Origin: Podarcis pityusensis | Taxonomy: Eukaryota | DNA length: 64,000 nucleotides | NCBI GenBank assembly: GCA_964106645.2 | Contig: OZ067039.1 | Direction: 5' to 3' (one strand) | In this document: positions 45,201-48,200 of the stretch, piece after piece | Layout of the letters: every line of letters begins with the position of its first letter | Position numbering within the stretch: position 1 is the stretch's first letter | Made by a program: the position numbers and the translations under genes | The notes under the pieces: model-generated | Seen by the model: the letters and a program-made list of their open reading frames with translations, nothing else | Told to the model about the DNA's origin: nothing | Database searches by the model: none

Positions 45201-48200
45201 CCCCTGCAATGTAGGAATCTCAGCTAAAGCATCTATGGCAGGTGGCCATCCAACCTCTGCTTAAAAACCTCCAAGAAAGGAGAGTCCACCACCTCTTGTG
45301 GGAGTCTGTTCCACTGCTGAACAGCTCTTACTGTCAGAAAGTCCTTCCTCGTGTTTAATCGAAATCTCCTTTCTTGTAGCTTGAAGCCATTGGTTCATGA
45401 CCTACCCTCAACAGCAGGAGAAAATAAGCATGCTTCCTCTTCTGTGTGACAGCCATTAAGATATTTGAAGATGACTATCACATCTCTCACCCCTCTCTTT
45501 TCCTGACTAAACATAGCAGCTCCTTCAAGCGCTCCTCCTAAGGCTTACTTTCTAGACCACCGATCATCTTGGTTGCCCTCTTCTGCATATGTTCCAGCTT
45601 GTCAACATCCTTCTTGAATTGTGGTGCCCAGAATTGGACACAGTATTCCAGGTGTGGTCTGACCAAGGCAGAATAGAGTGGTACTATTACTTCCCTTGAT
45701 CTGGACACTATACTTCTGTTGATGTAGCCTTTGCTGCTGCACCACACTATTGACTCACATAGGAGCCAACTCCCAGGGGCTGTGGGTCTTTGGCCCCCAC
45801 AATAAAATATTTGAGGGGGCCTGGCCCCCACAAAGTTGATGGGCATTCTCATTCAAAAGGTGTGTGTGCACTGCACCATGTGAACAATTATGTGGAGTGG
45901 GGCTTACCAGGGCCCCCACAATATTTTATTCAAGTTGGCACCCCGTTGACTCATGTTAAGCTTGTGGTCCACCAAGAACCCTGGATCCTTTTCACATGTT
46001 CTGCTAGTAAGCCAGGTGTCCCCCAGCCTATATTTGTGCATCTGGTTCTTCCAGCCTAAGTGTAGAACCTTACATTTGTCCCTACTGAAATTTATTTTGT
46101 TAGCTTGCGCCCAGTTCTCCAATCTGTTAAGGTCATTTTGAATTCTGATTCTGTCTTCTGTGGCATTAGCTACCCCTCCCAATTTGGTGTCATCTGCAAA
46201 TTTGATGAGCAAATACAAAAATTGTTAATATAGTAGGAAGAAGTAATCCCCACTGCAAACTTCCAATGTGTTGTATATGTGTTTTGTTTCAGATACTATG
46301 TACCACTTTGAATTTCATTTGAAATATTTATTTTAACTACTACCCAGCTACTACTTGGGAAGATAAAATGTAAAGGTGGTGGCATTGTATGTATGGGTTT
46401 AGAGAAACTTATTTCCCTTCTGAGAGTGCAAAACAGAGGGAGTCGCTTATCTACAGTTTTTGCAGGTGGGTAATTTAGAGTGAAGCATTAGCCAAGTCCA
46501 AAGTGGGAGTCACTATAATGGAAGTGTGCAATGATAAATGTGTTACTTTACACCTACAGAGGCTCAGAGTAAAGGCCTGCATTAAAGGTGTAGGATAAGG
46601 ATCCCTTGCAAAGTAACATGAATCCCGTATGTTGGAGCCTGCACAAACCAGAACCAAATGTTGGGTTTACATTAACTTCTGTGCCTAAATCCAGAGCTGA
46701 CAGTGTTTATGGAAACTCAGGTGAGCACCTCAATATGTCCAGCTTTTGAGCAGCTGTGGCTAAATTAATCACTAATGGCTCCTGACAGCAGCAAAACTCA
46801 ATGTAAATCAACATGGCACTTTGAATGAGATGAGTGCCACTTCCCAGGTGGTCTTTCTTGGGCTCTGTGTTTAAACCACCTCCACTTAAGCATGTGTTTT
46901 GTGGGTAAATCACCCTGGCAGCACTGAGAGTGATCAGGAGGAGGCTGCATAAACTTCTGGCAAGAACTAAGGCTGAGGTACACTAAAGCCTGCTTTGGCG
47001 CAAGGGATGCTGTTAAGTTGTTTTTCCCCAGGACTGAACAGCGGTGGGCTCTTGCTGCTTGGTGTGGGCTTAGCAGCTCATTGGTGTGCCCAGTAGAGTG
47101 CCCTTTGACTCACCTTTTGCAGTGTCCTGGCACTGGCTGATCGGATTGGCCTCCAGCAAATTTTGGCATTGGGCTCGCCTGCAGGGAAGAAAGTTGGTGC
47201 ATATGCTTAGCCAGGTTTCAGAGATGTTCAGGAACATCTGGATTCTTTTAAGGAGACTGGTGGGCTTGGCCTAACAGGCAGTGCACGCGAAAATGGCATG
47301 AAGGGATAGTATGGCTCGGGAATGGAGTGGCGGCTCCAGTTCTTCAGTCTTCACCAAATTCATCTCCAGTTGTTTTTGTGTTGCTTTGCACAGGAGGCAG
47401 TGCATCTTCACCATTCCTTCTCCATTCCAGCAAGGTGAAGTGCTGAGCACCTCGCCTTATATAGTAAGGATAGCTAACCAGTGGCCCTCCAGAAGTTGGT
47501 AGACTCTAACTCCCATCATTTCTGACTATTTCTGTGCTGGCTGGGGCTGATTGGATCTGGAGTGCCACAGGTGCTCTATTTCTGCATCCTGCCCCCCCCC
47601 CCCGTGCACCTTTTTCCTGCAATGATCTGATGACCATCTGGCAAAGGAAAGCTAAATTCTAGGCTTCTACATAACTTTCCCACAGAATGGCTCAAGCTAA
47701 TGGCCAGTGTTCTACTTTCCCCACAGCCAGAAGGTGCCTAGGCAAGAAAATGGCTGGGATGGGAGCCCTATATAGAATGTAGTAAGGGACCTAAGCTTGG
47801 ATGCTGGTTGGGTTAGGGAAGGTCAGGATTTACAGACAGTCCAACTTAAATGTTTGATGCTCAAGTCATATGATCTAAAGAGAACTCCAGACAGGCCATC
47901 CAGTATACACAGCCATAGCACATGCTTGTGTGTAGATGGTGATCCCCATCCCAACTATGCCAACTAAAGAGTACTAGGAAGTGTATGGAGGACAGAGACG
48001 GCACGCTAAAGAAGGGAGAGAAGGACAAGGTGAGAACTCACCTTTTTTTGGTGAGCAAGTAGGGCCTGCAGGACCTGCCATCCCAGGTGCAGTAGGGATC
48101 TCTAGCCAGGCAGCATTCGGTGCAGGTTTTGCCATAGTGTTCACAGCGATACAGGGAGAGCCGGACCAGGCCATTTGTAGTGCTCACAAACACCTCCTGC

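Follow-up and report, generated by a model that had tools for sequence, protein, structure and literature searches.

A sauropsid semaphorin-3D-like paralogue with an altered central furin motif and an added PSI-domain cysteine

Has a class-3 semaphorin gene of the lizard Podarcis pityusensis truly parted with the furin motif of its PSI domain, and if so, which gene is it, how old is the change and what may it do to the encoded protein? The question is raised by the stretch of 64,000 nucleotides analysed here (the window), in which two adjoining arginine codons of that motif appear as CAA TGC. A review (PMC6387194) states a central furin site for all class-3 members (as a general property, not as a definition of the class), and describes the cut at this site as usually inactivating, Sema3E excepted, and a second cut in the C-terminal tail as potentiating Sema3A. 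The tail cut is described as exposing a neuropilin-binding arginine (PMC8155012). The p65 product of Sema3F is reported to be monomeric and inactive, and cleavage to limit class-3 semaphorins as anti-angiogenic proteins (PMC12809092).

The closest proteins are lacertid records named "semaphorin-3D-like". A gene model built on one of them (P0002 from Lacerta agilis, whose residue numbers are used throughout) comprises 16 exons with AG/GT ends in the window, which form a single open frame of 725 codons, 97.2% identical to P0002. Some 3 kb past the end of the window comes exon 1 (L024 3117-3251), which joins the open frame; with 16 coding exons inside and exon 1 beyond the end, the two exons that meet in the motif are correctly numbered 14 and 15. 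The features of the locus and of this junction are listed below.

41816..62401, minus strand: semaphorin-3D-like gene, coding exons 2-17 (tblastn with P0002 and GT/AG exon model)
48042..48199, minus strand: exon 14, coding for the end of the Sema domain and for the PSI domain as far as TKKR
47179..48041, minus strand: phase-2 intron, GT..AG, 863 nt, splitting the Arg567 codon (AG/G), skipped in RNA-like contigs
47114..47178, minus strand: exon 15
47175-47177, minus strand: R568, codon CGA
47169..47171, minus strand: Gln570, codon CAA
47166..47168, minus strand: Cys571, codon TGC, in place of the ancestral furin site P1 Arg

The 3' end of exon 14 reads ACC AAA AAA AG/gt and the 5' end of exon 15 reads ag/G CGA GCC CAA TGC CAA AAT, the joined product being TKKR/RAQCQN. 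The 863-nt intron is skipped exactly, with CT..AC ends, in contigs of all three RNA-like runs (X10, X1 and X2, from two or three studies of related organisms); two of the three contigs continue into exon 16, and each has one unplaced mismatch within exon 15. The RNA label of runs X1, X2, X3 and X10 is the guess of the tool, none being recorded as RNA; the contigs are nevertheless spliced. The DNA-like run X19 (not independent, and perhaps itself the source) spans the stretch in one piece and has no listed difference in exon 15. The same residues stand at the junction in database proteins from Podarcis muralis, Lacerta agilis and Zootoca vivipara. The exon model, the three splice joints and the lacertid proteins thus confirm the junction, the CAA TGC codons and the extra cysteine of the preliminary description. 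Two of its reservations, a different true exon 15 and an assembly error in the two codons, are countered by the splice joints and by X19. A second AG, at 47173, would break the frame of exon 15 and does not serve as an acceptor. Intron read-through near exons 12-15 is seen in three database gene models (P0001, P0121 and P0325).

In its Sema, PSI and Ig domains and its basic tail, the window protein conforms to class 3. The Sema domain scores 182 bits with PF01403 (on P0002), and the PSI domain that follows it keeps all six invariant cysteines, with a Pfam PSI score of 20.3 bits against a cut-off of 23.1. The Ig-like domain is a modelled beta-sandwich (595-681, with Cys610/Cys662) that aligns to Sema-PSI-Ig structures; the best fold matches are mouse Sema3A 7m0r and 4gz8 (E 2.5e-66 and 8e-64, 40-47% identity), in which the furin loop has no cysteine. 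A hydrophobic helix (13-27) is modelled at the N-terminus in exon 1, and exon 17 encodes a basic tail that stays hydrophilic to the stop, with no membrane anchor and with the following elements.

41930..41932, minus strand: Cys734, matching in position the inter-chain dimer cysteine (33/33 sauropsid rows)
41900..41917, minus strand: polybasic RRKRRR of the basic tail
41834..41845, minus strand: C-terminal RVRR furin consensus, kept

The role of such a tail cysteine in the dimer is described in PMC8155012. An RxRR within the last 45 residues is common to all 20 squamate, all 13 turtle, crocodilian and bird, and all 41 fish rows of our alignment. The central consensus after the Sema domain is absent, no RxxR being present in the window or in any of 23 squamate rows. 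With the tail RxRR and the dimer cysteine both kept and the central site missing, the loss is selective for the off-switch.

The gene is not SEMA3D, whose motif the preliminary description cites for comparison. It is a separate paralogue, "semaphorin-3D-like" (si:dkey-49n23.1 in the names of several fish orthologue records), and the sister of true SEMA3D. The 120 best of 1707 hits with a length of at least 743 residues included orthologues from squamates, turtles, alligator, birds and fishes. In an IQ-TREE maximum-likelihood tree of 33 proteins, picked from the 103 of the alignment and stripped of the motif columns, the window gene shares a clade (100/100) with proteins of shark, chimaera, coelacanth, bichir, sturgeon, gar and teleosts, and this clade is sister to true SEMA3D (99.9/100); these values are those of the raw tree, the labels on re-rooted trees being shifted. 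Orthology to SEMA3D itself is rejected, as the window gene belongs to a clade of its own (100/100), apart from mammal, bird and frog SEMA3D, and the true SEMA3D is found elsewhere in the same genome (contig C5 of G000, L002/L013), with its central site intact. A genome search gave nine class-3 PSI exons (the top 9 of 19 matches), and the eight class-3 genes other than that of the window all read KR-R-x-RRQD in the same or the adjoining exon. On C2 the window gene has three further class-3 genes within 3 Mb, and SEMA3D is accompanied by two others on C5. Together with the human map positions, this arrangement fits a putative twin of SEMA3D born of whole-genome duplication.

The two sister genes share the Sema-PSI-Ig-basic-tail plan and a phase-2 intron within the motif, but they are 48% identical, and SEMA3D has a cysteine at column 53 that is missing from the paralogue. 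SEMA3D also evolves more slowly: the identity between Anolis and chicken is 59.2% for the paralogue and 87.6% for SEMA3D, and the paralogue has a long stem branch in the tree. No mammal or amphibian orthologue was found among the best 120 of 1707 hits, and the seven mammal and amphibian rows of the tree are all true SEMA3D. The paralogue may have been lost in mammals. Seven class-3 genes are counted in vertebrates by a review (PMC6387194). Searches of the ESM Atlas returned generic class-3 clusters only, and a search with the lizard C-terminal region gave 18 hits, all from squamates. A literature search found no paper on this paralogue, most subscription papers being outside its reach. Under the names SEM3D or semaphorin-3D, many records from birds, turtles and alligator are in fact this paralogue (those included in the tree group with the window gene), a trap for the use of sauropsid records by name.

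The history of the motif was traced in the 103-row alignment, which includes 41 rows from fish, coelacanth and cartilaginous fish, 13 from turtles, alligator and birds, 20 from squamates and 21 of SEMA3D. KRRxRRQD is whole in 40 of the 41 fish, coelacanth and shark orthologues (Arg571 in 41/41), in agreement with the ancestral motif proposed earlier, and KRRARRQD is kept in 21/21 SEMA3D rows. Unlike these fish orthologues, with which they share the clade and the RxRR tail, all 13 turtle, alligator and bird rows have Arg570-Cys571 (motif KRRARCQD). In squamates Cys571 is equally constant (20/20), and position 570, an arginine in fish, turtles, crocodilians and birds, is Gln in 19 rows and Lys in one. 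Cys571 thus occupies 33/33 sauropsid rows, 0/41 fish rows and 0/21 SEMA3D rows. Since the cysteine is common to all sauropsid groups and the glutamine is confined to squamates, parsimony over the squamates, turtles, alligator and birds sampled places Arg571Cys on the sauropsid stem and a later Arg570Gln on the squamate stem. A lizard-specific change is rejected by the same distribution, and the two codons did not change together. The proposed route by CpG deamination is likely yet uninformative, because a single base change can turn Arg into Cys or Gln only by a CpG transition.

A wider set of 159 sauropsid rows (90% clusters with isoforms included, hence not independent events), from which one row with no PSI match was dropped, gave the same picture. 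A full R-x-[KR]-R is found in 0/158 rows. One row ends before position 571, and of the other 157, 156 have the Cys; the irregular cases are a tinamou row (P0040) with Trp at 571 and a crow row that has the Cys after an inserted stretch. The change is therefore genuine and old and runs through the whole lineage instead of being peculiar to this genome, and the alignment of squamate, bird, turtle and fish orthologues that had been suggested as a check shows an intact site in fish. The sauropsid paralogue is an exception to the central site stated for all of class 3 (PMC6387194). It is not the sole one, since the motif is also loosened in a newt (QRRSTRDI), in fish (RRRNARQ/H) and in hagfish (QRRSWKQD) class-3 rows (P0132, P0154, P0212, P0126 and P0149). 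One hagfish class-3 row has no basic run at the central motif at all.

Our preferred reading is that the central furin consensus disappeared in two steps, first by Arg571Cys in all sauropsids and then by Arg570Gln in squamates, and that the protein, predicted to be secreted, would stay a full-length active dimer, trimmed by furin only at its tail. Cys571 would bond the spare PSI cysteine, Cys544; such a bond would tie the loop to the core of the PSI domain, and a nicked chain would still not come apart. We give this explanation as a whole a probability of roughly 50%. Of its parts, a reduced central cleavage in squamates is the one we consider probable, and a partial reduction in birds, turtles and crocodilians, in which RRAR precedes the cysteine, appears to us an evenly balanced prospect. 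That the gene represents a guidance cue lost in mammals, locked by a disulfide and furin-proof, which still receives its activating tail cut, seems unlikely in full.

The protein would act in the manner of engineered furin-resistant semaphorins, to which the preliminary description had already likened it, and the likeness stands: the same motif was mutated in uncleavable Sema3A (551RRTRR555 to ARTRA, PMC8155012). In furin-resistant Sema3A R551A/R555A, Sema3F R582A/R585A and uncleavable Sema3E (PMC8155012, PMC12809092) both RxxR registers are removed, as they are in lizards, where the changed residues match R554 and R555 of Sema3A (in a register derived from the motif). Unlike the engineered forms, the lizard change is natural, leaves KKRR upstream and adds a cysteine, and the resistance would follow from the motif.

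The remaining KKRR gives rise to the strongest alternative, namely that the site has moved rather than gone, with furin or PC5/PACE4 cutting, perhaps more slowly, behind the RRAR of birds, turtles and crocodilians and, in most lizards and snakes, behind KKRR. In its favour, a minimal RxxR persists in 126/135 turtle, crocodilian and bird rows, and a K-x-[KR]-R in 14/23 squamate rows, the window's KKRR among them; Lys565 was gained and fixed in squamates (20/20) on the same branch that lost Arg570; and the loop is exposed or flexible in one model. Sema3 cleavage sites are called degenerate K/R-X-X-R in PMC8155012, and a bare RR pair (HSIIRR of zebrafish proVEGF-C) was fully cut by furin and PC5 in transfected cells (PMC2896389). 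On the other hand, the earlier statement that R-x-R-R is gone and KKRR remains holds for the window, and both RxxR registers are wanting throughout the squamate rows (0/23). RXXR is given as the furin minimum and KKKR, with Lys at P4, as poorly cut (PMC9321182). Geckos (TKKRQAQC), Varanus and Anolis have no KxRR, and Arg568, invariant in the 41 fish and 21 SEMA3D rows, varies in several lineages. Basic residues appear dispensable at this place, because K-x-[KR]-R is absent from 9/23 squamate rows, yet the tail RxRR is kept in 33/33. We consider a moved site an appreciable but clearly minor likelihood.

The second part of the preferred reading concerns the cysteine, for which two positions of the PSI domain matter.

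48110..48112, minus strand: Cys544, class-3-specific seventh PSI cysteine and putative partner of Cys571
47130..47132, minus strand: Cys583, last invariant PSI cysteine

Six PSI cysteines (533, 540, 543, 551, 558 and 583) are invariant over 124 semaphorins of several classes. Cys544 stands outside these six and is present in all class-3 rows, and Cys571 raises the count from seven to eight. Arg571Cys is one of only 2/645 columns that hold one residue throughout fish and a different one in all 33 sauropsids. The protein evolves fast elsewhere and Cys571 hardly varies, so that a stray cysteine with no partner is improbable, and the unpaired state envisaged earlier is less likely than pairing. 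The alignment has no second co-gained cysteine in the mature chain; Cys181 is likewise conserved, and no partner is apparent for it. Class-4-like semaphorins have, by eye, mostly Ile, Leu or Val at both 544 and 571, an aliphatic pair that suits a contact of the two places and equally a plain packing role. AlphaFold2 models of P0002 (not of the window's own protein) gave pLDDT below 50 at 565-571 with 65 sequences, and with 124 sequences placed residue 570 in a beta-bridge, with a mean pLDDT of 79 over 571-580. Taken together, the conservation pattern makes an extra Cys544-Cys571 disulfide a serious candidate, at slightly less than even odds.

The packing role leads to another explanation, relaxed constraint, by which the site decayed through CpG transitions and Cys571 serves, non-adaptively and with no bond, merely to fill the core of the PSI domain with a small side chain. 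The fast evolution and long stem branch of the paralogue would agree with it, as would the CpG nature of all single-base routes, the hydrophobic residues at the place of 571 in other semaphorin classes and the missing mammal and amphibian copies (in the best 120 of 1707 hits). It accords poorly with a cysteine that is almost never exchanged for Ser, Ala or Val among the 157 sauropsid rows, with an intact frame in which all other cysteines are kept, and with spliced transcripts in relatives; we regard it as improbable. More improbable still is a bond of Cys571 between chains, from subunit to subunit or to another protein, giving covalent oligomers: the missing co-gained cysteine and the low confidence of the loop in one model would allow for it, but a spare cysteine is available in the same small domain, and the known dimer contacts are the Sema and Ig domains and the tail cysteine (PMC8155012). 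An assembly or exon-calling error has no point in its favour and is rejected as next to impossible in view of the splice joint in three runs and of the same Cys in 156/157 orthologue rows.

If the protein is indeed disulfide-locked and furin-proof, an Arg to Cys substitution at this place could stabilise other class-3 semaphorins as well. The orthologues form a natural series, from gar and coelacanth (intact) through chicken and turtle (RRARC) and lizard (KRRAQC) to gecko (KRQAQC), by which the purpose of the cut and the locking of the loop by an eighth PSI cysteine can be tested.

Several minor observations concern the transcript and the surroundings of the gene. In a contig of run X2 (283 nt, depth 5.75), the exon 15 donor is joined to a cryptic acceptor in intron 15 (window position 44950, minus strand); only seven codons follow before a stop, and the outcome would be a protein that ends with the PSI domain or a message that decays, although the joint rests on this one contig and may be noise. 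The putative squamate signal peptide (exon 1, L024 3117-3251) has a run of cysteines in columns 7-11 that is absent from the bird, turtle and fish rows. Long frames resembling LINE-type reverse transcriptase lie upstream of the gene (L046 6735-9758, L033 and L043), one of them over about 3 kb. A glutamate-receptor gene, sought as a synteny marker, was not found near the locus (150 of 974 candidates of this large receptor family were scored), and no long glutamate-receptor exon was recognised within about 245 kb upstream. Tail to tail with the semaphorin gene, on the plus strand at about 14000-31469 of the window, lies a multi-exon gene of an ATRX-like SNF2 helicase, which we take to be RAD54L2/ARIP4. 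Elsewhere in the genome, the ninth class-3 semaphorin locus (G000:C17:4476132-4476284; L006, L020) has an intact KRRSRRQD, and its exon 15 resembles a 3F-related fish clade (that of P0151/P0139), a paralogue beyond the mammalian seven.
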